Source: a virus
Lineage: Duplodnaviria > Heunggongvirae > Uroviricota > Caudoviricetes
Reading direction: 5' to 3' (one strand)
IMG/VR virus record: IMGVR_UViG_3300035034_002381
Coordinates: 1 to 64,000 of that record
DNA length: 64,000 nt
The notes under the pieces were generated by a model. That model had not been told where the DNA came from and ran no database searches. It saw only the letters and a program-made list of their open reading frames with translations. Numbering within the stretch: position 1 is the stretch's first letter; each line of letters opens with the position of its first letter. Below, piece by piece: positions 10,130 through 35,995 of this stretch. Both the position numbers and the translations under genes were made by a program.

Positions 10130-10135
10130 CTAAAC

Positions 10136-10209: not shown

Positions 10210-10214
10210 CACTT

Positions 10215-10297
10215 GGAAGGTAACTTGATGGTGATAGAGGTAGTTTGCTAAACTACTGGCCGTTTACTCGGTCGAGGTTCGATTCCTCTGCCTTCCG
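10215..10297 (+). tRNA. Class II tRNA-Ser (GCT)
   Basis: Acceptor ggaaggt/gccttcc, anticodon stem gtagt/actac with loop ttgctaa, variable arm ggccgtttactcggtc, T-arm gaggttcgattcctc. Confidence 0.7.
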
Positions 10298-10301
10298 CTA
10301 T

Positions 10302-10379
10302 GCTCCTGTGGATTATGTAAAAGCACAGCTAACACCTTGAGGAGGTGATCCTTTGTGGGTTCGAGTCCCGCCAGGAGTA
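10302..10379 (+). tRNA. Atypical tRNA-like gene, family member 3; anticodon-like hairpin cacc-ttgagga-ggtg (GAG)
   Basis: Acceptor gctcctg/caggagt, conserved block tggattatgtaaaagcacagctaa, T-arm gtgggttcgagtcccgc. Confidence 0.5.
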
Positions 10380-10404
10380 CAAAGAAGCAAAGAGTTAGTT
10401 AGGT

Positions 10405-10479
10405 TAGACTGGCTTGTTATGTGGTGAAATTGGTAAACGCGAGCGCTTTGGTGCTTAGTAACCTTAACACTTCTTATTT
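10405..10479 (+). ncRNA. Partial tRNA-like element: a Leu-type D-arm gtg-gtgaaattggtaaac-gc plus a hairpin, with no T-arm. It abuts the next tRNA
   Basis: Shares its D-arm sequence with the 10788-10899 element. Confidence 0.3.
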
Positions 10480-17119: not shown

Positions 17120-19195
17120 ATGAACAAAGATTCTAATGTATTATTAATACTTGAAAGATCTTCATCAAATCTAGATGTTAACAAGGAATCGGGTGATTAT
17201 ATTCTCGAAGGTATTTTTGCTCAATTTGGAGTTGAAAACAATAACAAAAGGATTTATGAGGAAAAAGAGTATTTACCACATCTCGAATACTTAAAAAAGA
17301 AAATTTCAGAAAATCGATTGATGGGAGAACTTGATCACCCAGAAAAATTTGAAATTGCTTTAGACAAAGTATCTCACGTAATTGAGAATATTGAATATGA
17401 TCAAGCAAAACGCCAGATTAAAGGGCGTGTACGTATTTTAGATACGCCATCCGGAAAAATCGCAAAGAGTCTAATCGACTCTAATATTCCTATTAGTATT
17501 TCATCACGAGCTGCTGGTTCTGTGAGTGAAAATAAAACTGTTTCTATTAAGAGAATTTTTACTTATGATTTAGTTGCTGATCCAGGTTTTGAAGATGCAC
17601 AATTATCAAGAATAAATGAATCATTTGGTTTAGACAACGAAAATAATCTACAAATTTTTGATGCTTCTAGATGGGACAACAATTTTTCGTTTGATGAAAA
17701 AGAAAAAGAAAAGCCTGTTGAGGCAATAAAAGAAAATAAAGAAAATACTACAGATATGAAAGAATTTGTGACAATTGAAAGCATGGAACGCTATTCATTA
17801 ATGGTCAAAGAAGAAATTGCTAAAATCAATACACGATTAGAAACTCTGAATGAGAGTAATGCTAATTCTGATGAAACAGCAGAACTTAGAAAAACCGTTG
17901 ATAATTTAGTAGGGTATGTTAATGAAATGGCTACCGAAATTAATCAAAACAGAGAATACATGTCATATACTGCTGAAATGCTTGACGAAAGTATTTCTTG
18001 GTCAGAAAATGAGATCGGTAATCAAGTTACTAAATTAATTGAATATACTGAATCTGAATTGGCTGTTCATCTTGATGGTTTAATTGAACACAATAACTAT
18101 CTTGCAGAAAAATTAAACACGACTATTGGATACGTTAATGAAGAATTGGCTCCAATTTTAGATGAGTCTATTAATCACAATGATTATTTAGTTGAACAAA
18201 TTGCTAATAACCGAAAATATACTGAGTATCTTGCTGAAAATGCTGTAGACTCAACAAATTTTGATTCGTTAGTAGAATATACTGAACATGTATATGAAAA
18301 TGCTGCTGGAAAATTTGAAGGTAAAATTAATGAATCTGCAACTGCTGAGGATGTAATTAAAAAACATAAACTTAAAACACATCACGATGTTGCTAAGTTT
18401 ATAGGAGATTTTTATGATTTACCAGATACAATTAAAGGATCTACCGATAAATTCACATTTAAAGACGTTGAGGACAACGTAATTAAAGTTGATGGTAAAG
18501 CAGGAACAGTAGACGGTAAAAAATTATCTCTGGCGGGATTGGTTGATCTTATGTCAGGTGGTGATTTTGATCTTCTTATTGAAAATCAAGCTAATAAAAT
18601 TAACGAAAATAAAAACGTATCAACAGATATTGAAAATCGATACATGAGTATCAATGAAAAAATTGACGCGGCTCTTGAGCAGATCAAGAAAACAAAGACT
18701 GAAGAAATCACAGAGTCTAAACGTCATCCTTTCACCAAACTACTCAACGAAAGTAATAGAGCTGCTTTCACTGAGTTAGGAAAAACCGAAAAAGAAAAGG
18801 TTTCAAAAGCTCTAAATGAAAACGGTATTTTAAGTACTGTAAAACTTAACGAAAAATTCACTTCATTGTTAGAAGGTAATTTCGAAATTGTTGAAGAGCC
18901 TAAATGGTTATCTGAAGCACCAGACAAGTATAAAGCTATTTTTGAAAGTTTGAATGAGGAAACTCAGGATAAACTTAGAGCTCAAGCTTCATGGTACGAA
19001 GGTAAACTTAAATCTCCTTATCAAATCGAAAATTTCTGGGCAACTAGAGGACTGAACGAAGACGTTGAGTTGAAGAATCTGAAAGACGATGCTGATGTAA
19101 AACTTATTAAAGAAAGTAATGATAGATCTAAAGATCTGGGTTATTCTTCTGATCGAGTTGCTGCAATTAAACAAGGTCTGAAAAGATTCAAATAA
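17120..19195 (+). CDS. Probable prohead protease fused to a scaffolding-type coiled-coil domain
   Basis: Sits immediately upstream of the major capsid gene. The N-terminal roughly 200 aa contain EGIFAQFGVENNNKRIYEEKEY...GELDHPE (T4 gp21 / S77-like). The rest is an acidic, heptad-rich segment typical of scaffold proteins. Confidence 0.5.
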   Translation: MNKDSNVLLILERSSSNLDVNKESGDYILEGIFAQFGVENNNKRIYEEKEYLPHLEYLKKKISENRLMGELDHPEKFEIALDKVSHVIENIEYDQAKRQIKGRVRILDTPSGKIAKSLIDSNIPISISSRAAGSVSENKTVSIKRIFTYDLVADPGFEDAQLSRINESFGLDNENNLQIFDASRWDNNFSFDEKEKEKPVEAIKENKENTTDMKEFVTIESMERYSLMVKEEIAKINTRLETLNESNANSDETAELRKTVDNLVGYVNEMATEINQNREYMSYTAEMLDESISWSENEIGNQVTKLIEYTESELAVHLDGLIEHNNYLAEKLNTTIGYVNEELAPILDESINHNDYLVEQIANNRKYTEYLAENAVDSTNFDSLVEYTEHVYENAAGKFEGKINESATAEDVIKKHKLKTHHDVAKFIGDFYDLPDTIKGSTDKFTFKDVEDNVIKVDGKAGTVDGKKLSLAGLVDLMSGGDFDLLIENQANKINENKNVSTDIENRYMSINEKIDAALEQIKKTKTEEITESKRHPFTKLLNESNRAAFTELGKTEKEKVSKALNENGILSTVKLNEKFTSLLEGNFEIVEEPKWLSEAPDKYKAIFESLNEETQDKLRAQASWYEGKLKSPYQIENFWATRGLNEDVELKNLKDDADVKLIKESNDRSKDLGYSSDRVAAIKQGLKRFK

Positions 19196-19213: not shown

Positions 19214-21007
19214 ATGAAACTTTTAAACGAACAAAAGATCTATGATGAGTGGGCTCCTATGCTAGAGGAGGAAACTTCAATCAAAGATTCTTCAAAATTG
19301 GGATGGATGACTAAATATTGTCACTACCATTCATTAAATGAAGCATTCACTGCACCTGCAGCTGGATTGCTTAACACGCCAGGTATGGGTAATGTAACTC
19401 CTGCTGGAGCTGCTGCCGGTGGTGCTAATGCATTCTACGGAAGTACTACTACTGGTTCAGGAGATAAATTCCCTTCATTATTGCCACTATCTATTCAGGT
19501 AGCTGCAAGAACTGTAGGATTTGATATCGTTCCTGTTATTCCTATGAACGGACCTTCGGGGGTTCTTACATACATGGATTATGTCTATGCTGGTGGAAAA
19601 GGAGCATTCGGAGCACCTCCAGGTGCTGCAGGTGCTGCAAACCCAGGTCTTAACGCTTACGCTGACAAGCCGTTAGTATTCAAAATCCAACTTGTTGGAG
19701 ATGAGAAAACTGCTTTCGATGCTGCTGCTGCGGGTGATGAATTCTTATTTGCTTCTGGTGCACTTGCTGCAACTGGAAACACACTACGTGTTGCTAAAAT
19801 CGGTCCTTCTAGAATCGACGGTCACTCTATTTTTAGAGTAATTGGAGAATCTGGTGATGCTGATGCGACTGGCGGTGCAGCTGCTGCTGTAGCGACAACT
19901 CTTACATCGCCACAATCTATCACATTGGCTTCTGTATTTACAGGAACTGCTGCGATGATTACTGCGGCTGGTGCTTTAGTTGATGCTGCTGATTCAGTAG
20001 TTAATCGTCCAGAACTTGTTAAAGCTCTTGAAGATCACGTTCAAGGTTTTGCTGGTGCAGGTCCAAACGATGATGAAGCATGGTCAGGAAATGCGACTGA
20101 TGGTACTGTATCTTACGAACCAATGCGAAGAGGTGTAGGTGAAGAGCAGTACTTCAGAACTATGGGACTTCAAGCTTTCACGAAATTCATTGAAGCTGAA
20201 ACTTTCCAAGTTGCTGCTAATGTTACTACAGAACAAATTCAAGATTTACAACGTCAGTATGGAATCGATGTGATTGCAATGATCGAGAACTCATTAGTAA
20301 ATGATATCTCTCAATCTATTAACAAGCACATTCTTTCTAGAGCTTTCGCTCTTGGATGGGGTGCAAACCTTACATTCAGAGATGTTGAAGGTGCAAACCT
20401 TAACCTTGAATTGGTAAACACTGGAACTGGTGTTACTGCAACTCCTGCTTACATTGATAAGACTGGAGTAGGTACTGCATCTGTATATCCTGCTTTCCAA
20501 GAATTTGCTGGAGCTGCTGCTGCTGCATCATTGGAAAACCAAGCAACATTCCAACGAAGAGTATATTCTAAAGTACTTGCTGCTGGAAACGTTGTTACTC
20601 AAAGAGGACGTAGAGGACCTGCAAACTTCATTGTTACTAACCTTCAGTTAGCGACAGCGTTGCAAGATTCTGCACAATTCTCTTGGGCACCAATGGCAAA
20701 CACCATTAACCAAAACAACGGTTCGCTTTACCCAGTGGGTACTGTAGCCGGAATGACTGTTTATGTAGATCCTAACATGGGATTCTCTGATAACAGAATT
20801 CTTGTTGGACGTAAAGGTGCTGATGAAGAACCAGGACTTAAATTCATGCCTTACTTAATGGCTGAATCAATCCAAACAATTGCTGAAGGTACAATGGCTC
20901 CGAAAGTTGCCGTAAAATCACGTTATGCTTTAGTTGAAGCTGGACACCACCCAGAAACAATGTACTTTACTATTGCAGTAAATGTACCTGTAGGTGGATT
21001 AGTATAA
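19214..21007 (+). CDS. Major capsid protein
   Basis: 597-aa Ala/Gly-rich protein directly after the protease/scaffold gene, followed by a strong terminator, with codon usage typical of highly expressed virion genes. Confidence 0.6.
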   Translation: MKLLNEQKIYDEWAPMLEEETSIKDSSKLGWMTKYCHYHSLNEAFTAPAAGLLNTPGMGNVTPAGAAAGGANAFYGSTTTGSGDKFPSLLPLSIQVAARTVGFDIVPVIPMNGPSGVLTYMDYVYAGGKGAFGAPPGAAGAANPGLNAYADKPLVFKIQLVGDEKTAFDAAAAGDEFLFASGALAATGNTLRVAKIGPSRIDGHSIFRVIGESGDADATGGAAAAVATTLTSPQSITLASVFTGTAAMITAAGALVDAADSVVNRPELVKALEDHVQGFAGAGPNDDEAWSGNATDGTVSYEPMRRGVGEEQYFRTMGLQAFTKFIEAETFQVAANVTTEQIQDLQRQYGIDVIAMIENSLVNDISQSINKHILSRAFALGWGANLTFRDVEGANLNLELVNTGTGVTATPAYIDKTGVGTASVYPAFQEFAGAAAAASLENQATFQRRVYSKVLAAGNVVTQRGRRGPANFIVTNLQLATALQDSAQFSWAPMANTINQNNGSLYPVGTVAGMTVYVDPNMGFSDNRILVGRKGADEEPGLKFMPYLMAESIQTIAEGTMAPKVAVKSRYALVEAGHHPETMYFTIAVNVPVGGLV

Positions 21008-21116: not shown

Positions 21117-22802
21117 ATGAACACTTCAGTCAAAGATATTATAAAAAACGTAAAATCCACCAAAGGTTTAGCAGTAAAAATATCAAATTCAGAAAGTCTA
21201 AATAAAGAACTTTTAGAATTAACCAAATACCTACCAACAGACTCTAGTATATCTGAGCGCATTTATAATATCTTAAATAATATTGATGTACAAAGTCTTT
21301 GTATTTGTGGTGACACATTACCATTCATTAAAATTTCCAAAGGTTACAAAACTTCGTGTGGTAATAAAGAATGTAAGTCGCGAACACGGAGTAATATTAA
21401 TAAAGAATCCAGTAAGAAAATAGACTGGGGCGAATCGATCAATAAACAACAAAAAACCAATTTACAAAAATACGGTTATGTTTCTAATCTTGCATCACCT
21501 AAAGAACGAGAAAAACATAAAGTTATTCTTAAAGAATTGACTGGATATGAACACCCATTACAGAATCCTGAATCTAAAAAGAAAAGACATAACACTTGTA
21601 TAAAAAATCATGGTACATTAAATTTCATCCATTCAAATAAATCAATACAAACGTTACAAGCAAAATATAATACCACTGCCACTAATTGTGCTCAAATACC
21701 CGAAATTCAAGATAGATCTGCCAAAACCCAATCTATAAATGCTGATAAAGCTTTATATCAAAAAATTGATAAAATAAATAAAACTATAATAGATCTTAAT
21801 AAAACAAATGCTAATATTGAGTGTGTGGGTTGTGGTCGTATTATGAATATACATCGGCAAGCACTCAATTATTATATTCGAAATTCTATTGACAATTGTT
21901 GGTCTTGCAACCCTGATTTTTCACCATTTGCCAGTAACAAAGAAAAGATGATTGTTACATGGCTCACTGATATAGGTATCACAAATATTGACACAAATCG
22001 CCGGAGATTTGGTGGTAAAGAAATAGATATTTTCTTAAATGATTATAACCTAGGAATTGAATTCAATGGCACATATTGGCATAGTGAATTACACAAAGAA
22101 AAAAATTACCATTTAAATAAAAAAACATATATTGAGAACTTGGGTTTCAAGTTGATTAATGTTTGGGAAGATGATTGGGAAGATGATATAAAACGTAATA
22201 TAATTCAAAGCAGAATTAAAAATTTAATAAACCTAAATCACCGCAAAATATATGGGCGTAAATGTCAGATAGTTCAAATATCTAACAAAGAAGCTAAAGA
22301 ATTTTATACCAATAATCATATTCAAGGTCATGCTATATCAGAAATTAACTACGCATTAGTATATGATAATGAAATTGTTTCAGTCATGAGCTTTTCTAGT
22401 AAAAATAGATTTTTCATTAAGAAAAATAGGGATAATGAAATAGAGTTGACTAGATTTGCAAATTTGATAGGTGTAAGTGTTTTAGGTGGTTTCTCTAAAC
22501 TATTCAAACATTTTTTGAAAAATAATGACCATGATACCATTATTTCATTTGCAGAATTTGATTGGACTGATGAGACTAATAATGTTTATCTTATGAATGG
22601 TTTTAAATTTTTAGGGAATTCTGGACCATCGTATTCATGGGTTGTTAATGGAAAACGGTTTTCTAGATTTAACTTTTCTAAGCAAAAATTAATCAAAGAA
22701 GGTTATGATAAGAATAAAACAGAAGTCGAAATAATGCACGAAAGAAAATATTATCGAGCTTGGAATAGTGGTAACTTAAAATTTATTTATAATAAATTAT
22801 AA
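21117..22802 (+). CDS. Free-standing homing-endonuclease-like protein: two Cys4 zinc fingers, a Vsr/DUF559-type (PD-(D/E)xK-like) nuclease core and a C-terminal putative DNA-binding region
   Basis: CICGDT...CGNKEC and CVGCGR...CWSCNP zinc fingers. The core IDIFLNDYNLGIEFNGTYWHSELH resembles the Vsr FVDGCFWHGH motif. The gene is inserted between the capsid gene and a recoded copy of the capsid gene 3' end. Confidence 0.55.
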   Translation: MNTSVKDIIKNVKSTKGLAVKISNSESLNKELLELTKYLPTDSSISERIYNILNNIDVQSLCICGDTLPFIKISKGYKTSCGNKECKSRTRSNINKESSKKIDWGESINKQQKTNLQKYGYVSNLASPKEREKHKVILKELTGYEHPLQNPESKKKRHNTCIKNHGTLNFIHSNKSIQTLQAKYNTTATNCAQIPEIQDRSAKTQSINADKALYQKIDKINKTIIDLNKTNANIECVGCGRIMNIHRQALNYYIRNSIDNCWSCNPDFSPFASNKEKMIVTWLTDIGITNIDTNRRRFGGKEIDIFLNDYNLGIEFNGTYWHSELHKEKNYHLNKKTYIENLGFKLINVWEDDWEDDIKRNIIQSRIKNLINLNHRKIYGRKCQIVQISNKEAKEFYTNNHIQGHAISEINYALVYDNEIVSVMSFSSKNRFFIKKNRDNEIELTRFANLIGVSVLGGFSKLFKHFLKNNDHDTIISFAEFDWTDETNNVYLMNGFKFLGNSGPSYSWVVNGKRFSRFNFSKQKLIKEGYDKNKTEVEIMHERKYYRAWNSGNLKFIYNKL

Positions 22803-22821
22803 TATATACAACATATATACT

Positions 22822-22852
22822 TGTTGAGGCGGGTCACCACCCAGAAACAATG
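22822..22852 (+). repeat. 31-bp copy of the capsid gene 3' coding sequence (20935-20965) with 3 substitutions, all synonymous third-codon positions
   Basis: gttgaagctggacaccacccagaaacaatgt versus gttgaggcgggtcaccacccagaaacaatgt. Confidence 0.8.
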
Positions 22853-22857
22853 TTCCC

Positions 22858-22895
22858 TCTTTTTATGTTTAAAACTTATATTAATCTTAGATATA
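22858..22895 (+). promoter_or_regulatory. Copy of the terminator-tail/promoter element also found at 6518-6550 (tttttatgtttaaaac(t)tatat(c/t)aatcttagatatataa)
   Basis: Near-identical 38-bp sequence in two places, each followed by an MK(N/T)..F.EF-type ORF. Confidence 0.6.
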
Positions 22896-23235
22896 TAAAC
22901 TACATATAATCAAATAATATGAAGACATTTAATGAATACGAACAAATCAATGAATCTGGTAATTAAAACTGCACAAAAAATTCAAATAGATCTTAAGAAA
23001 TTTCTTGAAGATGTAGTAATACCAGCATCTAATGGATATGTTAGAAATGAAGGTGATGCAGCTTTATTGTTATACGATATACTTGCACAAAAATATGATA
23101 TTACAACATAGACGCTATGAATGACGACGAAAAAATATAGTTTAAGTTCCAAATTATAGATTTAGTTAAGAAAAATCCCAACAATGAAAAACTGGGTGAA
23201 AAGATTAGATCTTTTACTAAAAATATGATATAAAG

Positions 23236-23484
23236 ATGAAAAACATAAAAGATTTTGGTGAGTTTAAATTAAATGAAAAAAGAAATGAGGCACTGAAAAA
23301 GGTTAAAACATCTTCGACTGTGCTAGATAATTTTGTTATGGATGTATTAAAAACTCAAAAGCTTTATCAAAACGAAATTCCTAAGCTACTTGCTAATGAT
23401 AAAGAATTAATAACTGAATTCAAAGAAGGTCGACAAGCATTTAATGATCTTCGAATATTAAATGATATGCTTGCAAAGAAATAA
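23236..23484 (+). CDS. Small hypothetical protein, MKN-K-F-EF family
   Basis: N-terminus MKNIKDFGEF. Confidence 0.4.
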   Translation: MKNIKDFGEFKLNEKRNEALKKVKTSSTVLDNFVMDVLKTQKLYQNEIPKLLANDKELITEFKEGRQAFNDLRILNDMLAKK

Positions 23485-23492
23485 ATAATACA

Positions 23493-23702
23493 ATGAAAAA
23501 CTTAAAAACATTTGAACAGTTTGTAACTGATAAGCTAATGGAAGGTGCAATGTCTGATATACATCTTATGGCTAAAAATTCTAAAACTATAGAAAATTTT
23601 ATAAAAGCTTTTTATAAAAAATACGATAATAAAGTCAAGAAGGGAAAAAGCACTGATGAATGGATAATCAGTCTATATAATGATATGGAATCAAAAACAT
23701 AA
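23493..23702 (+). CDS. Small hypothetical protein, MKN-K-F-EF family
   Basis: N-terminus MKNLKTFEQF. Confidence 0.4.
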   Translation: MKNLKTFEQFVTDKLMEGAMSDIHLMAKNSKTIENFIKAFYKKYDNKVKKGKSTDEWIISLYNDMESKT

Positions 23703-23711
23703 ATACCACTA

Positions 23712-24743
23712 ATGAAAAATTTAAAAACATTTGAACAATTTGAACTAGAAAATCTTAATGAGAAAGTGGGTTATAATCAAATTTCACACAAAAATAAAAG
23801 TTTTGTAGTTTATAATCATAAAGGAATTGAAGATTTATCTAAAAAATATAAAATTGTCAACCTAAAGAATTCTGTAGGACCTGATATAGAATTTCCTGCA
23901 ATAGCAGAATTAGATAATAATAAACCTTTTATTAGAAACATCTATAGACATGAGCTTGATAAATTAGAAAAAGGAATCTTTTTCGAATCCCATAATTTAG
24001 ACAAAGATGCTAAACTTTTTGAATCTGGAGCGATAACTAAAATTTTGACAGATGCAGGATTTATCAGTTTTGAAGACTCTGATGAATATGATTATGATAT
24101 AGGAATAGGTGGAGTAATTAACACTGTTGATCCAGGTATAGCTAAAGATATAGCAGATGAATTAAATGATAATGGTATATCTGCGAAAGCAAAAAGAGAT
24201 ACTGTAATTGTTGAATCTGTGAATGAGGGAATTTACGCTGATAAACTCGCAAAAGGATTATGGGATGGTGACATGGATTTTTCCGATTTAAGTAAAAGTG
24301 AACAAGACTTAATCGACAAGTTCGTCAAAAGAAATCTTGGTATCTTTAAAGACGAAAGATTTGAGATTCCCTTTCCTGATGAAGCTGCTGACACTGGAGA
24401 GTTTTGGGATGAAATTCAAAAAGATAAAGATTACTCAAAATTTGCAAAGGCTGTTAAAAAAGCAAGTTTGGGTGAAATTGAGTTTGTGAACGAATCTATT
24501 AATCAGATTCCTGGAGAAATACAATTTAATGTTGAACCACATACGTTTCTTAAAGATCCTAGAGAACTAGACAAAGCAGTAGCTGAAGTTGATAAATATT
24601 TAGCGGGCGGTAAAGAAAACATTGGCGGATTTATGATAGATCGATATTTAAAAGATTCTTTTGATCTTGATGCGTTTATTGACTCTGTGCATTTACATTA
24701 CCCTAGACCAATGATTCCTGAAATTCAATCCAAGAATCTATGA
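23712..24743 (+). CDS. Hypothetical acidic protein, MKN-K-F-EF family
   Basis: N-terminus MKNLKTFEQF, identical to the preceding ORF for 10 aa. Confidence 0.45.
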   Translation: MKNLKTFEQFELENLNEKVGYNQISHKNKSFVVYNHKGIEDLSKKYKIVNLKNSVGPDIEFPAIAELDNNKPFIRNIYRHELDKLEKGIFFESHNLDKDAKLFESGAITKILTDAGFISFEDSDEYDYDIGIGGVINTVDPGIAKDIADELNDNGISAKAKRDTVIVESVNEGIYADKLAKGLWDGDMDFSDLSKSEQDLIDKFVKRNLGIFKDERFEIPFPDEAADTGEFWDEIQKDKDYSKFAKAVKKASLGEIEFVNESINQIPGEIQFNVEPHTFLKDPRELDKAVAEVDKYLAGGKENIGGFMIDRYLKDSFDLDAFIDSVHLHYPRPMIPEIQSKNL

Positions 24744-24937
24744 ATGAAGCTAGTCATAAAAATGATTTTCTTGATTTTTTCCGAGTTCCTGATTCTAAAA
24801 GGTTAAAATTTGCAATTTATAAATTTGATGGTAATGACGATATGGATGATTTATTTGATGATCTTAAACCTTATGCATCGACAGTTGATGAGGTTAGAAA
24901 CTATTATGAAATAGCAACAAAAACACGCGATAATTAA
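24740..24937 (+). CDS. Small hypothetical protein
   Basis: ATGA overlap with the upstream gene. Confidence 0.35.
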   Translation: MNEASHKNDFLDFFRVPDSKRLKFAIYKFDGNDDMDDLFDDLKPYASTVDEVRNYYEIATKTRDN

Positions 24938-25806
24938 TGAACTTTAAAACATATTCACATCTGAAGGAAATTCTTCATGAAAGTGAAAATTATCAAGAAG
25001 TAATACATGAAGCTTTTGAATGGATTGAGGATGATTCTATTTTTGAGGCATACGCGTGGGCTTTTATTAAAAGCCCTGTTAAAGTGACTAAAATGTTTAC
25101 TAATCAAAATAAGCTTACAAAATCTTTAATTAGTCAGGCTGTTATTGATATTGATCTACAGAATCGTAAAGAAGCTGCTAAAAAAATATCTGACCCACAG
25201 AAAGCCAAAAACCAGAGAGAAAAACTCCAACAAGCTCATGACATAAAGAAAAAGGGTTTATCCGATAAAATCAGTGGTATAAAACAAAGAATTGATGATT
25301 TAGCTGGTAGTGATTCTAAACTTCAAGAATTGGCTTCAAATTTAAAAACTAAATCTGGATTAGCTGCTGCAGAGAAATTAATTAAGGCAGCTGATGGGGC
25401 AGAACAGAAAGAATTACAAATTAAGATTAGAAAAAGTAAAGAAAAACTTTCGAGACAAGAAAACATTTTTAAAGAATATGAGTCTAATCTTTCTACTGAG
25501 GATAAAGCTAAAGGTCAAGAACAAGCTAAAACTGCTAAATCTGAAGACGATGGAAAATCTGATTCTACTAAAAAGGATGCAGAGTCTTCTATTGAGGAAA
25601 AAATCGAGGCGGAAAAGGATGCAATTAACGATTTAGTTAGAGAATTTAATGGGAAGAAAAAGAAAATTGCAGAAGCTAGAAAAAGATCGCATATTACACA
25701 AGCAAAATTTGATGAGTTAATGAAAAATCTCATGAAAGAAGGTCACCAAGAAAAAATTGATGTTCATAAAAAGAACATTATAGATTTAAAAAAGAATAGC
25801 AAATAA
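24937..25806 (+). CDS. Lys/Glu-rich coiled-coil protein
   Basis: 289-aa low-complexity K/E/A-rich sequence. Confidence 0.4.
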   Translation: MNFKTYSHLKEILHESENYQEVIHEAFEWIEDDSIFEAYAWAFIKSPVKVTKMFTNQNKLTKSLISQAVIDIDLQNRKEAAKKISDPQKAKNQREKLQQAHDIKKKGLSDKISGIKQRIDDLAGSDSKLQELASNLKTKSGLAAAEKLIKAADGAEQKELQIKIRKSKEKLSRQENIFKEYESNLSTEDKAKGQEQAKTAKSEDDGKSDSTKKDAESSIEEKIEAEKDAINDLVREFNGKKKKIAEARKRSHITQAKFDELMKNLMKEGHQEKIDVHKKNIIDLKKNSK

Positions 25807-26081
25807 TGAAAAAGGCAAGAACATTTACAGAATTTAATGAGTCTATATCAAACGAAGAAGAACTAAATGAAGCAGTCGATGTATTTATCGCAATTGCTGA
25901 AGCTTTAGACGTAAGTTTAGATGTCGCAAAAATGATAGTAGCTTTGGCAGGAGTCACCGGAACAGTAACTTTCGCAGCAGCAATGACAAAAATCCAAGAT
26001 GTATTGGCAAAGAAAAATCCTAAATTATCTAAGAAATTAGGTGATATTACAAAAGGAGCAAATAACGCGAGAACACAATAG
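25806..26081 (+). CDS. Small hypothetical protein
   Basis: N-terminus MKKARTFTEFNE (MK..F.EF family-like). Confidence 0.35.
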   Translation: MKKARTFTEFNESISNEEELNEAVDVFIAIAEALDVSLDVAKMIVALAGVTGTVTFAAAMTKIQDVLAKKNPKLSKKLGDITKGANNARTQ

Positions 26082-26085: not shown

Positions 26086-26505
26086 ATGGATGATATTAGC
26101 AATGGAGGTGGAATTCTCCAAAAAACAAAGATACTTACAGTAACAAATAAGATTGGTTATGCCAAGAATTCTGAGGGTGTGACTTCTGTATTTGCTAATA
26201 CTGATATTGGAGCAGGCGATCTTATCGAGGTTGCGACCCTTCTAGAAGTTTCAGATATGGTGATGACAAATAGAGAAATTGCTGATCATGTTTTTACAGT
26301 AAATCCAGAAAGTAAACAATATGCGATCGGTTTAGGATTTGCTTGTTTATATCAACATAACGATAAACCTAACGCCGAGTGGAATATACCTAGCGATAAA
26401 AAGGAAATCAGATTTACTGCTAAAGACGACATAAAAAAATCTGAAGAAATCACAATTTCATACGGAAAGAATTATTTCCTAAGTAGAGAAAAGAAAGAGG
26501 AATAA
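26086..26505 (+). CDS. SET-domain protein (putative protein lysine methyltransferase)
   Basis: GFACLYQHNDKPNAEWN matches the RFINHSCxPN motif, and EEITISYGKNYF matches ELTFDYG. Compact at about 140 aa, like viral vSET. The start was moved to the ATG at 26086 to avoid overlap with the upstream ORF. Confidence 0.6.
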   Translation: MDDISNGGGILQKTKILTVTNKIGYAKNSEGVTSVFANTDIGAGDLIEVATLLEVSDMVMTNREIADHVFTVNPESKQYAIGLGFACLYQHNDKPNAEWNIPSDKKEIRFTAKDDIKKSEEITISYGKNYFLSREKKEE

Positions 26506-26562
26506 ATTTTGGAATAAGCTAAAACATTTGAGGCTTTCATGAATATAAACTAAAAGATATTC

Positions 26563-26973
26563 ATGAAAGCCTTTACTTATGTTATAGATATTGATGACAC
26601 TATCAATATTACCGATAGAGATGAAAATAATATAGGACTGTATTCTCAGTCTCGGCCGATACTTAAAGTTATCAATAAAATTCGAAGACTTAAAAAAGAA
26701 GGCCACAAAATCATACTTTTTACTGCTAGAGGTATGCGTACATTTAATAATGATGTCAAAAAAATCGAAGATTTTCATAGAGAAACACTCGTTAAATGGT
26801 TAAATGACCATGAAGTCCCTTATGACGAACTACAGTTCGGTAAACCATGGGGCCCCCATGTAATATATGTCGATGATCGTGCTGTTACTATTAACCAATT
26901 TGTTTTGGGTGGTCCCGAAAATCACAGAAGTTATACACACATTAACAAAACAGTTATAAATGATGAATTATAA
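26563..26973 (+). CDS. HAD-superfamily phosphatase
   Basis: Motif I VIDIDDTI (DxDxT), motif II ILFTARG, motif IV GKPWGPHVIYVDDRA. Confidence 0.6.
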   Translation: MKAFTYVIDIDDTINITDRDENNIGLYSQSRPILKVINKIRRLKKEGHKIILFTARGMRTFNNDVKKIEDFHRETLVKWLNDHEVPYDELQFGKPWGPHVIYVDDRAVTINQFVLGGPENHRSYTHINKTVINDEL

Positions 26974-28660
26974 AGTAATTATTCCCGCGGCAGGGAAGGC
27001 ATCAAGACTCAAGCCTTTATCTTCTTCAATGTCAAAATCAATGGTGCCAGTAAATGGTAAACCAATAATTTCATATATTCTTGATCAACTGTTTGAACTA
27101 GGAAATCCATTTCAAATAGTTATTGTTGAAAATGAGCTCGGTGATATTCAAGATTTTGTTAAAAACGCATATCCAAATTATTATGAAGAATCCCGTATTC
27201 TTTTTGCAACTCAAAAAGAAAGGTTAGGTCCTTTGCATGCTATTGAAATTGGTGCAAATAGGTTTCCGGAAAATGATAACATGCCAATTATGGTTTGGCT
27301 CGGAGATACAATCTGTTTGGAAATGGGTGAGTTGCCAGTTAATGAATCTTTATTAATTACATCGCCTGTCGCCGATTATAAAAGATGGTGTTTAGTAGAT
27401 AACGAGAATGTCTTCTATGATAAACCAGATAACAAACCAAGCACTAACCAAGCTTTAATAGGTATATATTATTTCCATGATTTTAAGGCCTTCTACGAGG
27501 CCCTAGATAAGGGAATGCAAGCTCCTATGATTAAAGATGAACATCAAATATCGGCTTTATTAGAAGCATATAAAAAACAACATATATTCAAAATCAGAAA
27601 AACTGATGAATGGTTTGATTGTGGTGAGTTACATACATTTTATGAATCTAAAGCAAGACTTCTTGGAAGATCTGCCAGGTCATTTAATAGTCTAGAAGTA
27701 AATACATTCCATAACACAATTACTAAATCTTCATTAACATTCGAAGGTAAACTGAAAATTGAGAATGAAAAAAATTGGTATTTAGGTTTACCTGAGAATA
27801 TTCAGATTCTCACACCTAGAGTATTAAAATCAAATTCAGGTACGCTAGTTATGTCGCAAGAACCTGGAACACCTCTTAATGAAATGTGGCTTTATGAGGA
27901 TTTGACTGATGATACATGGAAAAGAATAATTGATAAAACGTTACTTATACACAATAAAATTTTCTATCAATCTAGATATATTCCTAAATCTTCTAAATTA
28001 GATAGATTTGCTGCAAGAAAGGAAATGTATCTGACTAAAAATATTGACAGATTGACAGAAATTTCATTCCTGCCTTTTGCACAGAAAAATATAAAAATGA
28101 TTCGAGATTTTGTGCGGGTTACTGGTGAATTATTAATTGAAGATGAAGGTCGTTGGTCGCCACATTTTCATGGAGATTCTCACATGGGTAATATTTTATT
28201 TGAACCTTTACAGGGAAGTATGAAATTTTTGGATCCACGTGGAAAGTTTGGAAATATCGTAGGCATTGAGGGCGATATGTATTATGATATGGCTAAAATT
28301 GCGCAAGATTTTCTTTTACGCTATCCTGAAATTTTATCTGGTCATTATCATTTTAGTGGAGATAATTTTGACCAGCTTGAATTTTATAGAAATGACGAGA
28401 GATCTAAAACTATGCTAAAACATTTCAGAAAAAGAATTGGTGAATATGGTTATATTCCTAATCTTGTTTTAATGTTAGCAACTGTGCTTATCATAACTTG
28501 TATACCTTTTCATAAAGACGATCCAGAAAGACAAAAAGCATTTTGGTATATGGCAGTAAATGTTATTAAAGAAAGAGGGTGGAATATCCAACTCGAAGAT
28601 CATCTCAAAAAACAAAAATTACAATTATCAGACAAGATACATAATCTATACAACTTATAA
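26960..28660 (+). CDS. Bifunctional nucleotidyltransferase / APH-fold kinase (LicC-LicA-like). It would activate a phospho-alcohol or sugar-1-phosphate as an NDP derivative
   Basis: N-terminus KVIIPAAGKASRLKP...VPVNGKPIISYILDQL (sugar-phosphate nucleotidyltransferase G-x-G-T-R-L-like motif). C-terminus HFHGDSHMGNILF and FLDPRG (Brenner kinase motif of choline/aminoglycoside kinases). Confidence 0.6.
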   Translation: MMNYKVIIPAAGKASRLKPLSSSMSKSMVPVNGKPIISYILDQLFELGNPFQIVIVENELGDIQDFVKNAYPNYYEESRILFATQKERLGPLHAIEIGANRFPENDNMPIMVWLGDTICLEMGELPVNESLLITSPVADYKRWCLVDNENVFYDKPDNKPSTNQALIGIYYFHDFKAFYEALDKGMQAPMIKDEHQISALLEAYKKQHIFKIRKTDEWFDCGELHTFYESKARLLGRSARSFNSLEVNTFHNTITKSSLTFEGKLKIENEKNWYLGLPENIQILTPRVLKSNSGTLVMSQEPGTPLNEMWLYEDLTDDTWKRIIDKTLLIHNKIFYQSRYIPKSSKLDRFAARKEMYLTKNIDRLTEISFLPFAQKNIKMIRDFVRVTGELLIEDEGRWSPHFHGDSHMGNILFEPLQGSMKFLDPRGKFGNIVGIEGDMYYDMAKIAQDFLLRYPEILSGHYHFSGDNFDQLEFYRNDERSKTMLKHFRKRIGEYGYIPNLVLMLATVLIITCIPFHKDDPERQKAFWYMAVNVIKERGWNIQLEDHLKKQKLQLSDKIHNLYNL

Positions 28661-28670
28661 AAAACATACT

Positions 28671-28949
28671 ATGAGCAAAGATTTAGAAAAAGCTAGTGAG
28701 ACACTAGAAGAAACATTGACAGATATCCAAAAGGTGGCAGCTGCTAATTTTTATGATATTGTACAAATTAGTTTAGCCGATAAAGAAGGTAAAGTAGTTG
28801 GTAAAGCTTCTATGAAATATGAAGATATTTTAGCAATGACTAAGATGCATACACAAGATTCTTCACACGTTGTAGGAATGTTATTTCATGCAGTCGAATC
28901 AGAAACTCGTAACAAATTACGAGAAGAAAAAGAAAATGAAGCCAAATGA
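28671..28949 (+). CDS. Hypothetical protein
   Basis: Start moved to the internal ATG (MSKDLEKASE) to avoid a 100-nt overlap with the upstream gene. Confidence 0.35.
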   Translation: MSKDLEKASETLEETLTDIQKVAAANFYDIVQISLADKEGKVVGKASMKYEDILAMTKMHTQDSSHVVGMLFHAVESETRNKLREEKENEAK

Positions 28950-29134
28950 TTTTTAAAGTAAGAGTAGAAGAAAAGAGCATAGAAGATGTTATAGAACTTA
29001 TTGAAACAGGAGAAGGGAAAAAAGGTCTCCAATTTGATCTATATAATGAAAAACCATATTTTTCACATGTAGAAATTTTCGTTAATACTGATGATTTCTA
29101 CACATTAAAGGATTATTTAAATGAACAAACCTAA
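28946..29134 (+). CDS. Small hypothetical protein
   Basis: 62-aa ORF. Confidence 0.3.
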   Translation: MIFKVRVEEKSIEDVIELIETGEGKKGLQFDLYNEKPYFSHVEIFVNTDDFYTLKDYLNEQT

Positions 29135-31064
29135 GACTATATGTCTTGTTATGATTGTAAAAAATGAGGCAAAAAATTTACCTCGTTGTTTTTCTACGAT
29201 CAAACATATTATTGATTATTGGGTAATTGTTGATACTGGTTCAACTGATAACACACAGGAAGTTATACAGAAAGAGTTAGCCGATATTCCTGGTGTATTA
29301 ATGGAAAGACCGTGGGTCAATTTTGGTCATAATAGATCCGAATCTTTGGCTTTTGCTAAAAACAGAGCAGATTATCTTTTGCTTTGTGATGCTGATGAAC
29401 AAATTATACCTACACACAATTTTGACAAATCTGAGTTGACTCTTGATCAATATCATTTAAGATATAATGGGAGCTTAGATTATATGGTTCCTTATCTTAT
29501 TAAGTCTAATTTGGCTTGGAGATTTGTAGGAGTTACCCATGAATTTTTGACAGCAAGTGACACAAAATCTTCAGGTGAGATTAAAAGCCTTTCAATTAAA
29601 GATTGGGGAGATGGTGGAGCAAAATCTGATAAATTTGAAAGAGACATTAAATTGCTCGAACAAGGTTTGATTGATGAACCGAAGAATGTTAGGTATATGT
29701 TTTATCTAGCAAATTCTTATAAGAATACTAAGGATTTTGATAACGCAATCAAATGGTATAAAAAACGTATCGATGCAGGGGGTTGGATAGAAGAAGTTAC
29801 ATGTTCATATGAATATATGGGAGGATGTTATCAGCAGAAAAATGACCACGGGAATGCGATTAAAACATGGATAGATGGTTATGAATTTAATCCTTCTCGT
29901 GCTGAGTGTTTATATGAGGCAGGTAAATTACTTCGTGAAGAAAATAAGAATAGAATAGCTTACGAATTTTTACAAAAGGCTAAAGAAATTCCATATCCTA
30001 CTAACGATAGATTATTTATCAAAAGAGATGTTTATGAATATTTGATAGATTATGAACTGACTATTTGTGCATATTATGTTAAACCAGAATATGATATGAC
30101 CGAGACATTTAAAAGGCTAATCTTTTGGCCAAGTCATTTACAACAAAACATTATACAAAATTTTAAGTTTTGGGCTAAAGATTTGAATACACTTATAGGT
30201 CAAGAGGAAAGTATGATCTTGGCTAAAGATTTGATTAGTAATGATTTGGTTGAGGGTTTTACACCTAGTTCCCCATCAATTCTTTTTCATAAAAATCGCA
30301 AGTACATAAATGTGCGCCAAGTATCATATAAAATTGACGAAAATGGTAAGTATTTAGATCGTGCAAGTGGAGGTCATTGTAAACATGTGAATACAATTAA
30401 CACAATGTATTGGACTGATGGACCCTCATATGACACGGAAAATTTTAAACCCAATGATATTTCTACTAAACATGTGAATGGTATTGAAGATCTAAAACTA
30501 TATACACACAATGGAGTAATCAAATACACTGGGACAAAATGGTTGGATTATAACAAAATTTCTATAGTTATTGGTGAGTATACTAAAGAAGGTCTAGATA
30601 ATTATGCTATTCTAGAGTCTCCAGAAGGAAGGAATGTTGAAAAAAATTGGGTACCGTTTGGATTAGATAATGAAGAACTTTTTGTATATGATTGGAATCC
30701 AATAAAAATTGGAAGAATCAAAAATAATAAACTAGTAATCAAAAATTTAAAAACTAGTTTTCCTAACTTGCGTGGATCAGCTCCTGGTAAACTTATTGGA
30801 GATCATATCTATTTTTTATGTCATTTTGTAGAATATTCTACACCAAGAATTTACTATCATATCTTCATTAAAATGCATAAAGATAATTGGGAAAAAATCG
30901 AGATTTCTAAACCGTTTGTTTTTGAAAAACCACAAATAGAATATTCAGTAGGATTTGATTATAATATTAAGACTGATGATATACATATTGCATATAGTGT
31001 AAATGATTCGAATGCAAGAATCAAATCTTATTCACAAACACAATTTCAAAAACTTTTTACTTAA
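29121..31064 (+). CDS. Family 2 glycosyltransferase with a central TPR-like region
   Basis: N-terminal GT2 signature ICLVMIVKNEAKNLPRC...VIVDTGSTDNT; TPR-like YLANSYKNTKDFDNAIKWYKKRI. Confidence 0.65.
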   Translation: MNKPKTICLVMIVKNEAKNLPRCFSTIKHIIDYWVIVDTGSTDNTQEVIQKELADIPGVLMERPWVNFGHNRSESLAFAKNRADYLLLCDADEQIIPTHNFDKSELTLDQYHLRYNGSLDYMVPYLIKSNLAWRFVGVTHEFLTASDTKSSGEIKSLSIKDWGDGGAKSDKFERDIKLLEQGLIDEPKNVRYMFYLANSYKNTKDFDNAIKWYKKRIDAGGWIEEVTCSYEYMGGCYQQKNDHGNAIKTWIDGYEFNPSRAECLYEAGKLLREENKNRIAYEFLQKAKEIPYPTNDRLFIKRDVYEYLIDYELTICAYYVKPEYDMTETFKRLIFWPSHLQQNIIQNFKFWAKDLNTLIGQEESMILAKDLISNDLVEGFTPSSPSILFHKNRKYINVRQVSYKIDENGKYLDRASGGHCKHVNTINTMYWTDGPSYDTENFKPNDISTKHVNGIEDLKLYTHNGVIKYTGTKWLDYNKISIVIGEYTKEGLDNYAILESPEGRNVEKNWVPFGLDNEELFVYDWNPIKIGRIKNNKLVIKNLKTSFPNLRGSAPGKLIGDHIYFLCHFVEYSTPRIYYHIFIKMHKDNWEKIEISKPFVFEKPQIEYSVGFDYNIKTDDIHIAYSVNDSNARIKSYSQTQFQKLFT

Positions 31065-32362
31065 TGTACATTATAAAAAACAATAAACTTGAATCTACTG
31101 ATAATATCGATTTATTTTTTAATGAGATAAATGTTGGACAACATATTGCTAAATATGGATATTTCGAAAGTGACCTTATTAATTGGTTAAAGCTTACATA
31201 TAAAAATAATGATAAAATCTTTTTAGATTTAGGAGCGCACATAGGTTCATATTCAATAGAATTAGCAGAAAATTTTCATTCAGTTCATTCATTTGAACCT
31301 AATCCAACAGTCTATAATCATTTATGTGCTAATGTTGCATTAAAGAGATTATCAAATAGGGTATTTCCACACAGAGTTGCATTATCGGATAATAAATCTA
31401 AACAGCCATATTATGAGAGATCCAAAGATGGTGGAGGTAATGGAATTGAAGTTGTAAGAGAGAACGATAAGCACTCATTCTTTGTAGAATCTAAATGTTT
31501 AGATGATTATTCTTTCGATAAAGAAATCGGTTTGATTAAAATTGATATCGAAGGTCATGAGTATAAAGCTATTTTGGGTGCATATGAAACTTTGAAAAAC
31601 TCATATTTCCCACCTATAATTTTCGAATCTTGGGCGCAAAATACACACCCAGAATATTCACAAGAAATACTTTTAGAAATTCGTGATAAAACATTTGATG
31701 TATTAAAGGATTATGGATACACTGTTAAATCCATAAGTGGATATAATGAAATGTTTATTGCTGTTCAAGAGCGTGAAAAATCTCAAGAAGATATTATTGT
31801 TGAAGGTCTTTTGACAGATAAGTTAGACGTATGGCTTAACTCACCTGGAGGGACTCGAAGCAATTATATAGCCGATGTTCTAGAAAAAAGTAATTTAAGA
31901 GTGAGAAACGAATCCTGGTATAAGTATGGTTGTCATTGGACTTCTCCTTTATTTGAAAGGGAATTTAAAACTACAAGATTGTTTTGCTACACTAGCGATA
32001 TCGGACTCGCATTGACAAGTCAGTTAAATGCCAATACTATTGATAAACTGAATTTTGCAGATTTTTATAATGAACCATGGGATTTATATCGATGGATACA
32101 AAATATTAAAAAACAAGTGATTAACTGGTCGGATCCTGGCGTATTCTTTTTAAATACCGACTATTTAAATGATAAAGATATTCAGTCTGAATTTAAAACT
32201 CTTACTGGAGATAGTTTAGACATATCAGATTTCAGACTTGACCGTAAATCTAAAAAATTACATCCTGCATTAATACAATACATGGATGAGATTAATGAGA
32301 TTAATGAGTTATTAGCAAAATTACCTAATGCCGGTTTTGGCGGAGAAGTTGATGAAGGTTAA
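31064..32362 (+). CDS. FkbM-family methyltransferase with a C-terminal extension
   Basis: FLDLGAHIGSYSIELAE matches the FkbM D-x-G-A-x-x-G motif. Confidence 0.55.
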   Translation: MYIIKNNKLESTDNIDLFFNEINVGQHIAKYGYFESDLINWLKLTYKNNDKIFLDLGAHIGSYSIELAENFHSVHSFEPNPTVYNHLCANVALKRLSNRVFPHRVALSDNKSKQPYYERSKDGGGNGIEVVRENDKHSFFVESKCLDDYSFDKEIGLIKIDIEGHEYKAILGAYETLKNSYFPPIIFESWAQNTHPEYSQEILLEIRDKTFDVLKDYGYTVKSISGYNEMFIAVQEREKSQEDIIVEGLLTDKLDVWLNSPGGTRSNYIADVLEKSNLRVRNESWYKYGCHWTSPLFEREFKTTRLFCYTSDIGLALTSQLNANTIDKLNFADFYNEPWDLYRWIQNIKKQVINWSDPGVFFLNTDYLNDKDIQSEFKTLTGDSLDISDFRLDRKSKKLHPALIQYMDEINEINELLAKLPNAGFGGEVDEG

Positions 32363-32816: not shown

Positions 32817-33455
32817 ATGAACATATTTGTTCTTGACGAAAATGTCAAAAAATGTGCCGAATATCATTGTGATAAACATGTTGTCAAAATGATTACTGAG
32901 CATAATCAAATTTTGGGTTCGATTTCTTATTTACGTAGAGGTATTTCTAAAAAATCGGAAATAACTGATGAATTTATTCAACAACATTTCCAAAATTTTC
33001 CTAGAAAAAAATTAGCAATTGATATGGATTCATTACCCATTGCTGATCATTCGCCACTTATCAAAAAATTATGGAATTTTGTAAAACCCGCAGAATTGTC
33101 TTGGCCGTACGGTATTGGTTATAAAAATCATCCATGTACACAATGGGCTAATGCGTCTAAAGAAAATTATGATTGGCTATGCTCACTCAATCTTGAATTG
33201 TGTAAAGAATATACTAAACGATATAATCGTCGACATGCTGGTGAGGATATTACTCAATGGTATATTGAAAACGCACCATATCTACCGAATTCTGGCATGA
33301 CTCCATTTGTTTTAGCTATGCCTGATGATTGTAAATCTGATGATCCAGTTGAATCTTATCGAATTTACTACATTTATCATAAATATAAATTTGCCAAATG
33401 GAAAACAAAAGTTCCAAATTGGTATATAAACGTTATAAAACATCAAGAAATATGA
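32817..33455 (+). CDS. Hypothetical protein
   Basis: 212-aa ORF with a conserved-looking N-terminus MNIFVLDENVKKCAEYHCDKHVVKM; no family assigned. Confidence 0.4.
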   Translation: MNIFVLDENVKKCAEYHCDKHVVKMITEHNQILGSISYLRRGISKKSEITDEFIQQHFQNFPRKKLAIDMDSLPIADHSPLIKKLWNFVKPAELSWPYGIGYKNHPCTQWANASKENYDWLCSLNLELCKEYTKRYNRRHAGEDITQWYIENAPYLPNSGMTPFVLAMPDDCKSDDPVESYRIYYIYHKYKFAKWKTKVPNWYINVIKHQEI

Positions 33456-35989: not shown

Positions 35990-35995
35990 AAAGAT

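Follow-up and report, generated by a model that had tools for sequence, protein, structure and literature searches.

A minimal SET-fold protein with a substituted active-site pocket, encoded beside lysine-rich and leader-bearing genes in a tailed phage

SET proteins are best known from eukaryotes, as the classic family of enzymes that methylate histone lysines; few prokaryotic members have known substrates, and in tailed phages they are represented by annotations only. Here, we examine a SET-domain gene in a stretch of 64,000 nucleotides from a viral record assigned to Caudoviricetes (IMG/VR record IMGVR_UViG_3300035034_002381, positions 1 to 64,000), the whole of which is referred to below as the window. 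The encoded protein of 139 amino acids has the SET fold, and its pocket is substituted at three canonical active-site positions. The fold is established; methyltransferase activity is uncertain. The interpretation that we put first, tentatively and with less than even confidence, is that of a lysine methyltransferase of the type of chlorella virus vSET, with a noncanonical and probably weak site for S-adenosylmethionine (SAM), which would modify lysine-rich phage proteins located inside the head. Gene context points to such proteins, rather than to nucleoid or ribosomal proteins of the host, as targets; SAM binding, catalysis, and the identity of the substrate are what we infer for this protein.

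A minimal SET domain under purifying selection

The gene and its product are laid out as follows.

26086 to 26505, plus strand: SET-domain gene with an ATG start, 139 amino acids plus stop; SET core at about residues 22 to 134
Residues 1 to 21 of the product: N-terminal extension carrying the conserved GGILQK motif

The Pfam SET profile (PF00856) matches the protein at 43.7 bits (E = 4e-11; model positions 4 to 105 of 105), against a gathering cutoff of 22.4 bits. An earlier note, made from the letters alone, had proposed a minimal SET-domain methyltransferase in a phage and had named the lack of a profile match as one outcome that would overturn it; the SET domain is instead recovered by that very search. 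Among sequences of known structure in the PDB, the top match is vSET of chlorella virus PBCV-1 (1n3j/3kma; E = 1e-9), and next come PFL0690c of Plasmodium and Set7 of S. pombe, which are likewise small SET proteins. An AlphaFold2 model built with 19 homologs reached a mean predicted local distance difference test (pLDDT) score of 81.5, with averages over 10-residue blocks of 86 to 97 across residues 21 to 60 and 71 to 120 and of 82 to 83 across residues 61 to 70 and 121 to 130; both termini were disordered. Comparison of the model with the PDB using Foldseek again placed vSET first (3kma; E = 1.7e-10, template modeling score normalized to the target 0.85, root mean square deviation 2.3 Å), and the top 50 matches listed for this predicted structure were SET domains throughout. 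The SET match is far beyond chance, and we are nearly certain both of the SET fold of the protein and of its membership in the SET superfamily. Its architecture is that of a lone Pfam domain of 139 amino acids, with no cysteine clusters and without the zinc-binding pre-SET and post-SET domains. The likeness in size to vSET that the earlier note had drawn is therefore sound, vSET being the best structural match by both sequence and fold.

The same open reading frame (ORF) was called by public gene callers on seven independent metagenome contigs (ENA, JGI, and Logan). The gene is nucleotide-identical on all seven, so variation among these contigs is uninformative. Comparison with two orthologous clusters (P0002 and P0003, at 73% and 69% identity; P numbers denote homologs and L numbers denote loci throughout) gave ratios of nonsynonymous to synonymous substitution of 0.10 to 0.26 with nearly saturated synonymous sites, and the stretches invariant across the orthologs are SET motifs (VFANTDI, LYQHNDKPNA, and ITISYGK.YFLSREK). 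The gene is real, functional, and under purifying selection.

An active-site pocket with three substituted positions

Alignment with vSET locates the residues expected to form the active site.

26179 to 26187, plus strand: motif I position, V32-T33-S34, aligned with vSET G15-Y16-G17; both glycines of GxG are replaced
26287 to 26289, plus strand: H68, aligned with vSET Tyr50, the tyrosine of "DYLF"
26353 to 26358, plus strand: Q90-H91 of motif III (codons CAA CAT), canonically Asn-His; vSET N69-H70
26461 to 26463, plus strand: Y126, the catalytic-site tyrosine of motif IV, vSET Y105; it lies in EEITISYG, a segment identical in vSET

In other SET enzymes of the G9a and vSET types, the "YLF" tyrosine (vSET Y50) lines the lysine channel. 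In the window protein, this channel tyrosine is a histidine (H68), motif I reads V-T-S in place of GxG, and motif III keeps its histidine with glutamine in place of asparagine; the motif IV tyrosine (Y126) is present. Both motifs on which the earlier note had relied are thus in place, EEITISYG at residues 120 to 127 and YQHNDKPN at residues 89 to 96, although the description of the latter as NHSC-like needs amending, the actual motif being Q-H-N with the canonical asparagine changed to glutamine. With three canonical active-site positions substituted, the word "methyltransferase" is not yet supported.

An exhaustive HMMER search of 1.84 billion representative sequences returned 2,031 matches at E ≤ 1e-3, and below 1e-30 the sole match was the representative of the window protein's own family. 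Position counts come from an alignment of 152 of the proteins retrieved, which contain 169 SET domains, to the profile of the family. Position 34 is glycine in 116 of the 169 homolog domains (Ser, Ser, and Ile in the three family members), position 68 is tyrosine in 120 (histidine in all three family members), position 90 is asparagine in 138 (glutamine in the window), and position 126 is tyrosine in 162. The full canonical set of Gly34, Tyr68, Asn90, His91, and Tyr126 occurs in 90 domains, with 18 more gapped at position 34; the corresponding combination in the window family is Ser (or Ile), His, Gln, His, and Tyr. Residues 32 to 34 read VTS, KTS, and IPI within the family. Across nearly all aligned homologs, His91, Tyr126, and Tyr130 are kept, followed by Phe131, which is tryptophan in most others.

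About 20 other phage homologs are similarly divergent (P0006, P0007, P0010, P0014, P0019 to P0022, P0026, P0036, P0038, P0042, P0043, P0050, P0052, P0094, P0100, and P0110). Their changes at positions 34, 68, and 90 mostly occur together (P0022 keeps Tyr68), with Thr, Ser, Ile, Lys, Val, Gln, or Met at position 34, His, Ile, Leu, Met, Val, or Ser at position 68, and Gln, Arg, Lys, Ser, Thr, Gly, or Ala at position 90; H91, Y126, Y130, and W/F131 are conserved in nearly all of them. In the outgroups P0004, P0012, P0017, P0023, and P0029, all of these motifs are canonical; P0005 has lost the second glycine and the tyrosine and retains Asn-His. Because the closest outgroups are mostly canonical, the ancestor was an ordinary SET enzyme.

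These substitutions are where our preferred interpretation meets objections, and most of them speak for a rival, namely, that the protein is a pseudoenzyme: a noncatalytic SET-fold protein that would keep the fold and the lysine-channel residues, would have lost canonical SAM binding, and would bind a lysine-containing segment of a partner. It might, for example, serve a lysine-rich internal protein as assembly chaperone or regulator, or it might inhibit a host factor or act as a decoy for one. We judge this rival to be somewhat unlikely. The variety at positions 68 and 90 across the divergent phage homologs looks like a dismantled canonical pocket, and the joint loss of the residues at 34, 68, and 90 fits the same picture. 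Ile34 in P0003, together with the lost GxG glycines, suggests little constraint on the strand that packs against SAM, and residues 32 to 34 drift even inside the window's own family. In DIM-5, the corresponding motif III change from asparagine to glutamine (N241Q) is reported to lower SAM binding and activity strongly, and the SET-like domain of TTLL12, which has glutamine at the motif III position, is reported to be inactive, with no detectable methyltransferase activity. In yeast Set1, the motif III asparagine mutant N1016A is null and the motif I glycine mutant G951A is crippled, with mostly monomethylation left (PMC3585878). Nor does the conservation of His91 and Tyr126 prove catalysis, since both are also structural (in the pseudoknot and the channel) and Set1 H1017A is hyperactive (PMC3585878). 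Purifying selection, finally, fits any functional protein.

Other observations argue against a pseudoenzyme. Q90 and H68 are invariant in the window family despite saturated synonymous divergence, and glutamine retains the amide group, which suggests a specific role for these residues in the pocket. To our knowledge, no binding-only SET function toward phage proteins has been described. The second glycine of GxG is also missing from active SUV4-20 enzymes, and SUV4-20 enzymes are among the closest structural neighbors of the model by Foldseek. The canonical motifs of most of the nearest outgroups count in favor of activity as well. As for the precedents with glutamine at motif III, the effect in DIM-5 is a strong reduction, which is not abolition, and one precedent is an engineered mutant and the other a eukaryotic domain, neither of them a close relative. 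They therefore show what a change from asparagine to glutamine can do and not its effect in the window protein.

A lysine-rich protein encoded next to SET genes

If the window protein is a lysine methyltransferase, as we tentatively prefer, its first candidate substrate would be the product of a gene one gene upstream.

24937 to 25806, plus strand: Lys/Glu-rich protein of 289 amino acids, 18.0% Lys, net charge +8, with a weak leader (MNFKTYSHLKEILHE)

In lysine content, this protein ranks first among the 50 ORFs in the window that encode 100 or more amino acids (median, 9.2%; runner-up, 14%). Homologs are encoded upstream of SET genes in L007 (48% identity), L010 (54% identity), and L017. In L017, a homolog of 355 amino acids lies directly before the SET gene (P0005) and is 37 to 39% identical (39% over 171 nonrepetitive residues; E = 5e-33); the SET protein there is only 38% identical to that of the window, and the downstream genes are unrelated. 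Lysine-rich proteins are also encoded just 5' of SET in L016, L019, and L020 (18 to 25% Lys) and in L012, L024, L026, and L030 (14 to 17% Lys), the last four being loci of a second SET group, group B, that is described below.

Two kinds of precedent led us to propose a lysine-rich internal protein as target or partner. The internal proteins of T4 are of strongly basic character and touch the packaged DNA through their lysines (PMC3012670, PMC8442874). Prokaryotic SET proteins are in turn known to act on lysine-rich DNA-compacting proteins of their own cells, cpnSET of Chlamydia methylating the histone-like Hc1 and Gö1-SET of Methanosarcina acting on MC1-α; both are cellular and not viral and serve here as analogies only. 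The active sites of cpnSET and Gö1-SET are canonical.

Under the preferred interpretation, the SET protein would use SAM to methylate lysines of lysine-rich head-internal phage proteins, with the 289-amino-acid neighbor as the conserved first candidate, and would do so in the infected cell before these proteins enter the prohead core. Methylation might then tune their DNA binding or their stability. With a pocket of Q90, H68, and V32-S34, the activity would be expected to be weak and would probably be limited to monomethylation.

The gene context supplies its own reasons for caution. The link between SET and lysine-rich genes is drawn from few loci, partly related by descent, and lysine-rich ORFs are common in AT-rich phages, so the support that it lends is suggestive. 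The lysine-rich proteins of L016, L019, L020, and the group-B loci show no detectable homology to the 289-amino-acid protein; for the "MKYSEY" lysine-rich proteins of group B, no relation was detectable by BLASTP. Searches with the 289-amino-acid protein itself found no match in Pfam, PHROGs, NCBIfam, or phage records (tblastn), and a large protein search returned the protein itself only. Three further points of this kind concern the leaders discussed next: the equation of these leaders with a capsid-targeting sequence (CTS) is by resemblance only, several of the leader-bearing neighbors are acidic, and the SET protein of the window has no leader.

An array of leader-bearing genes upstream of SET

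The genes between the capsid gene and SET include several whose products begin alike.

17120 to 19195, plus strand: prohead protease of the gp21 type (Peptidase_S77 in the N-terminal ~170 of 691 amino acids, by Pfam)
19214 to 21007, plus strand: major capsid protein of the gp23 type, 40 to 43% identical to those of huge phages
23236 to 24743, plus strand: three consecutive ORFs of 82, 69, and 343 amino acids with leaders resembling the T4 CTS (MKNIKDFGEFKLNE, MKNLKTFEQFVTDKLME, and MKNLKTFEQFELENLNE)
25806 to 26081, plus strand: ORF of 91 amino acids adjoining the 5' side of SET, with the leader MKKARTFTEFNES…LNE and a hydrophobic segment

In T4, internal proteins are brought into the core of the prohead by the CTS MKTYQEFIAE, which gp21 removes with a single cut (PMC8442874, PMC3012670). 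T4 leaders are 10 to 20 residues long, and the packaged ADP-ribosyltransferase Alt is cut at ITE-6 (PMC5694885). In the window, the ORFs starting at 23236, 23493, 23712, 25806, 6577, and 46797 begin MKN[LIV]K.F.[EQ]F, with L-x-E following within a few residues (for example, MKNLKTFEQFELENLNE and MKNVKNFREFLNE; in the array, MKNLKTFEQF…LNE), and the ORF at 24937 has a weaker form (MNFKTYSHLKEILHE). Of the six, four fall within the 2.9 kb directly 5' of SET. The pattern K/R-x-[FY]-x-x-[FY] is enriched 18- to 38-fold at N termini among 75 window ORFs (6 starts versus 11 occurrences elsewhere; Fisher P = 4e-6, for a pattern chosen post hoc, after the data had been seen). We considered and rejected a repeated DNA cassette as the source of these starts: their nucleotide sequences differ and the amino acid pattern is kept, which indicates that it is the protein, and not the DNA, that is conserved.

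By analogy with T4, the leaders may act as capsid-targeting sequences, and the array products would then likely be head internal or ejected. The gp21-type protease, encoded 7 kb upstream of SET, is the enzyme expected to cut such leaders after [LI]xE; by tblastn, its protease domain is 29% identical to T4 gp21 (E = 6e-6) and up to 40% identical to gp21 of cyanophages. Leader-bearing small genes stand on both sides of SET at the orthologous loci.

L007: leaders MKNIKSFHEFLNE and MYVKTFKEFMLNE
L009/L010: leaders MKNVRTFEDFLNE, MITFKEFLNE, MKSFKEYRNSSINE, and MNYVKTYQELNE

Among the targets that the earlier note had offered, phage structural proteins are accordingly the sole ones with some support from gene context, in the form of the leader-bearing array and the lysine-rich neighbor.

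A programmed frameshift that would join the 91-amino-acid leader ORF to SET was considered as well and rejected, there being no slippery site and other genes occupying the upstream position at orthologous loci.

The array region is hyperplastic between near-identical phages. The SET gene, although identical to the nucleotide, stands on contigs that are distinguished by insertions or deletions corresponding to window positions 21117 to 23702 and 24740 to 24937: the window, L001, and L005 carry a homing endonuclease of 561 amino acids (PHROG 3339), three small ORFs (two of them leader bearing), and an ORF of 65 amino acids, and in L002 to L004 and L006 the gp23 gene runs straight into the 343-amino-acid gene. 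The element GATATATAAT occurs at 6545 to 6556 and at 46768 to 46779, about 20 to 30 nucleotides 5' of the starts of the leader-bearing ORFs 6577 and 46797, and the partial copies ATGATATGGAAT and ATGATATGCTTG precede ORFs 23712 and 23493. Elements of this type may be a shared promoter of leader-bearing genes.

Leaders on related SET proteins and their loss in the window

Several relatives carry a leader on the SET protein itself: P0005 (MRTFDNFLNE), P0006 (MKVFNDILNE), P0012 (MKKFLEFINE), P0023 (MITFTEFITE), and P0050 (MEYIKNFKEYLNE). The proteins of group B start MKxKIKxL..[FY]….[LIV][ND]E-[DE]F[YF]NPF; they include a copy on a 405-kb contig and fusions of SET to the upstream gene. These relatives have in common a GG[ILM]L[KRQ]K segment that closely follows the leader and its presumed cleavage site. 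The start of the window protein is MDDISNGGGILQK, at the GG segment; because its family begins exactly there, we take the leader to have been lost. As a leaderless protein, it would act in the cytoplasm of the infected cell and would not be packaged. Many other phage SET proteins may, by analogy, be packaged and ejected in the manner of T4 internal proteins or Alt.

It is these leader-bearing relatives that lend weight to a second rival, a lysine methyltransferase directed at nucleoid-associated, ribosomal, or defense proteins of the host, by which the cell would be subverted or disarmed, since these relatives would enter the capsid and be ejected into the next host, as are T4 Alt and the anti-restriction internal protein IPI*, and secreted bacterial SET effectors likewise modify proteins of the cell under attack. 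The ejection argument does not extend to the leaderless window protein, however; the conserved linkage that we found is to phage genes only, and the doubts about catalysis apply equally here. We regard host-directed methylation as unlikely and continue to favor, tentatively, phage proteins of the head interior as targets.

The GG[ILM]L[KRQ]K segment occupies residues 8 to 13 of the window protein (nucleotides 26107 to 26124) and is also found in P0004, P0005, P0007, P0012, P0017, P0029, and P0031. The homologs with this extension, to the group of which the window protein belongs, are for the most part metagenomic and stand in phage contexts. Model confidence is low here (pLDDT, 43 to 55). The segment could be a pseudosubstrate or automethylation site or a strand that binds a partner.

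In six relatives of 400 to 436 amino acids (P0010, P0014, P0028, P0038, P0094, and P0110; L012 positions 1673 to 2902), SET is fused to the product of an upstream gene that is separate elsewhere (the "MSL.S.VE.YK" protein of about 200 amino acids in L012, L024, and L026), and in P0006 (255 amino acids), it is fused to that of a downstream leader-bearing gene. Such fusions imply a tight functional or translational linkage inside the arrays. A domain scan of the longer SET homologs found SET domains only and gave no functional hint.

A sugar-nucleotide cassette downstream of SET

The 3' side of SET is occupied by genes of a different kind.

26563 to 32362, directly 3' of SET: sugar-nucleotide or capsule-like cassette
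26530 to 26573, plus strand: perfect 17-bp hairpin with a 10-nucleotide loop, the 3' arm of which covers the ATG of the HAD gene (26563)

The cassette encodes a HAD phosphatase resembling phosphatases of capsule biosynthesis (TIGR01689, EcbF/BcbF-like; 98 bits, below the cutoff), a 566-amino-acid nucleotidyltransferase of which the C-terminal half is kinase-like, a glycosyltransferase of the GT2 type that carries TPR repeats, and an FkbM-type methyltransferase; a surface glycan of the host and a protein or the DNA of the phage are candidates for its target. The hairpin (ΔG = -27.5 kcal/mol; z = -6.5; 0 of 200 shuffled sequences fold as well) could be a terminator or a translational block.

That the SET protein belongs to this module, for example by methylating a glycan or a pathway enzyme, is suggested by adjacency, as the module adjoins the 3' side of SET in the window, L007, and L009. 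Yet the module is absent from the flanks in L017 and at all group-B loci, where the upstream protein context persists; the strong hairpin forms a boundary between SET and the HAD gene; and in L009, leader-bearing genes lie between SET and the module. We know of no SET-domain sugar methyltransferase, and we consider this explanation very improbable.

Relation to known systems

vSET (PBCV-1 A612L, an H3K27 methyltransferase) shares with the window protein a viral origin, the minimal single-domain size, the identical EEITISYG segment, and, at the C terminus, a tail of similar form (Y-[WF]-LSR). The two are about 28% identical and differ in the pocket, where vSET has G15-Y16-G17, Y50, and N69-H70 and the window protein has V-T-S, H, and Q-H. 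They differ, too, in that vSET lacks the window protein's extension of about 20 residues with GGILQK and in that the vSET host has histones, whereas the host of the window phage is a bacterium without them.

With the internal proteins of T4 and with its Alt protein, the neighbors of the window SET gene and its relatives share leaders, here of 10 to 22 residues and ending in [LI]xE, and a gp21-type protease. The T4 internal protein loci are likewise variable between near-identical phages, and Alt is a precedent for a packaged enzyme that modifies proteins. Differences are that the window SET protein is leaderless, that some of the neighbors are acidic, and that the phage is only distantly T4-like and known only from metagenomes.

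Among phage records, tblastn with the window SET protein matched eight huge-phage records only, including Lak and 735-kb phages. The homolog in LR756501 is 34% identical, with canonical GWG, Y, and NHS and without a leader. Annotated phage SET proteins include small SET-fold proteins among the UniProt entries of "uncultured Caudovirales phage" in BFVD (for example, A0A6J5L8Y2) and, in Stenotrophomonas phage Ps15, ORF62, which is entered as a SET domain protein without an assigned function. None of the PHROG and NCBIfam models recognizes the window protein, and by sequence, its family is a cluster separate from the annotated phage SET proteins. Our literature searches turned up no functional work on SET proteins of phages.

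A scan of IMG/VR with the window SET family returned one locus and no family member. That locus (L013; IMGVR_UViG_3300025809_001421, 9995 to 10420) was set aside as irrelevant, having a degenerate SET motif (YNTS) on a contig that resembles eukaryotic giant viruses and being unrelated to the phage group; the same contig encodes a repeat protein of 1,586 amino acids, the ends of which are ubiquitin-like, and a TROVE/Ro-like protein. Read with translation table 11, the Lak-C1 locus (L015; 6001 to 6360) is nearly devoid of long ORFs, in keeping with the reported stop-codon recoding in Lak phages, and because ORFs are broken under that table, the SET loci of Lak phages were left out of the locus comparison.

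Were lysine-rich proteins that travel with the DNA to be methylated as we propose, this would be the first such pair of writer and substrate in a bacteriophage, and it would provide a handle on how huge phages organize and deliver their packaged genomes. A pseudoenzyme would instead show the SET fold to have been repurposed by a widespread phage lineage. Apart from SET, leaders resembling the T4 CTS may serve to predict packaging and ejection for the proteins of large phages that have not been cultured. A broader idea, speculative and in our estimate improbable, is that large T4-like phages, and huge phages as well, possess a module of "phage chromatin," made up of lysine-rich, DNA-packing internal proteins and a dedicated SET protein. 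In many lineages, the SET protein would be delivered into the capsid by a T4-type leader and ejected along with the DNA, and the window lineage would have lost the leader and rebuilt the pocket (Gln, His, and Ser for Asn, Tyr, and Gly). If true, this would mean a new mode of SAM binding or a switch from writer to binder on lysine-rich proteins.

The phage and its other genes

The long ORFs of the window are all on one strand, and 21 tRNA genes, all on the plus strand, lie between positions 229 and 10979. The capsid protein is closest to those of the metagenomic sequence LR756500 (462 kb) and the Prevotella Lak megaphages. Together with the gp21-type protease, the capsid protein and the tRNA genes confirm that the SET gene resides in a phage, as the earlier note had it, and the gene content indicates a large, distantly T4-like one. 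The tRNA array has duplicates for Met, Tyr, Ile, Val, Ser, Thr, Leu, and Arg and is typical of large and huge phages. A megablast search with the 12 kb around SET against 50,697 phage records found no relative at the DNA level.

The T4 late promoter TATAAATA is not enriched in the window (14 observed, 13.6 expected), and a scan of the window for σ70-like promoters was at background, so the timing of expression cannot be deduced from promoters. Products with signal-peptide starts in the style of Bacteroidota are encoded at 8646 to 8870 and 12713 to 14710 (MKKVTFLILILFNINLWAQ and MKKLLLLLMLFSSVNLFSQ), the second being an M43 metallopeptidase; these signal peptides, the Lak-like capsid protein, and a G+C content of about 32% hint at a host among the Bacteroidota. 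Accessory genes (32817 to 33455, 35015 to 37714, 39111 to 40319, and 1201 to 2661) encode a pyrimidine-dimer glycosylase resembling denV, a kinase-like protein (zeta-toxin/AAA_33) beside an NAPRTase of NAD salvage, a C5 cytosine DNA methylase, and an SPFH/Band-7 protein.

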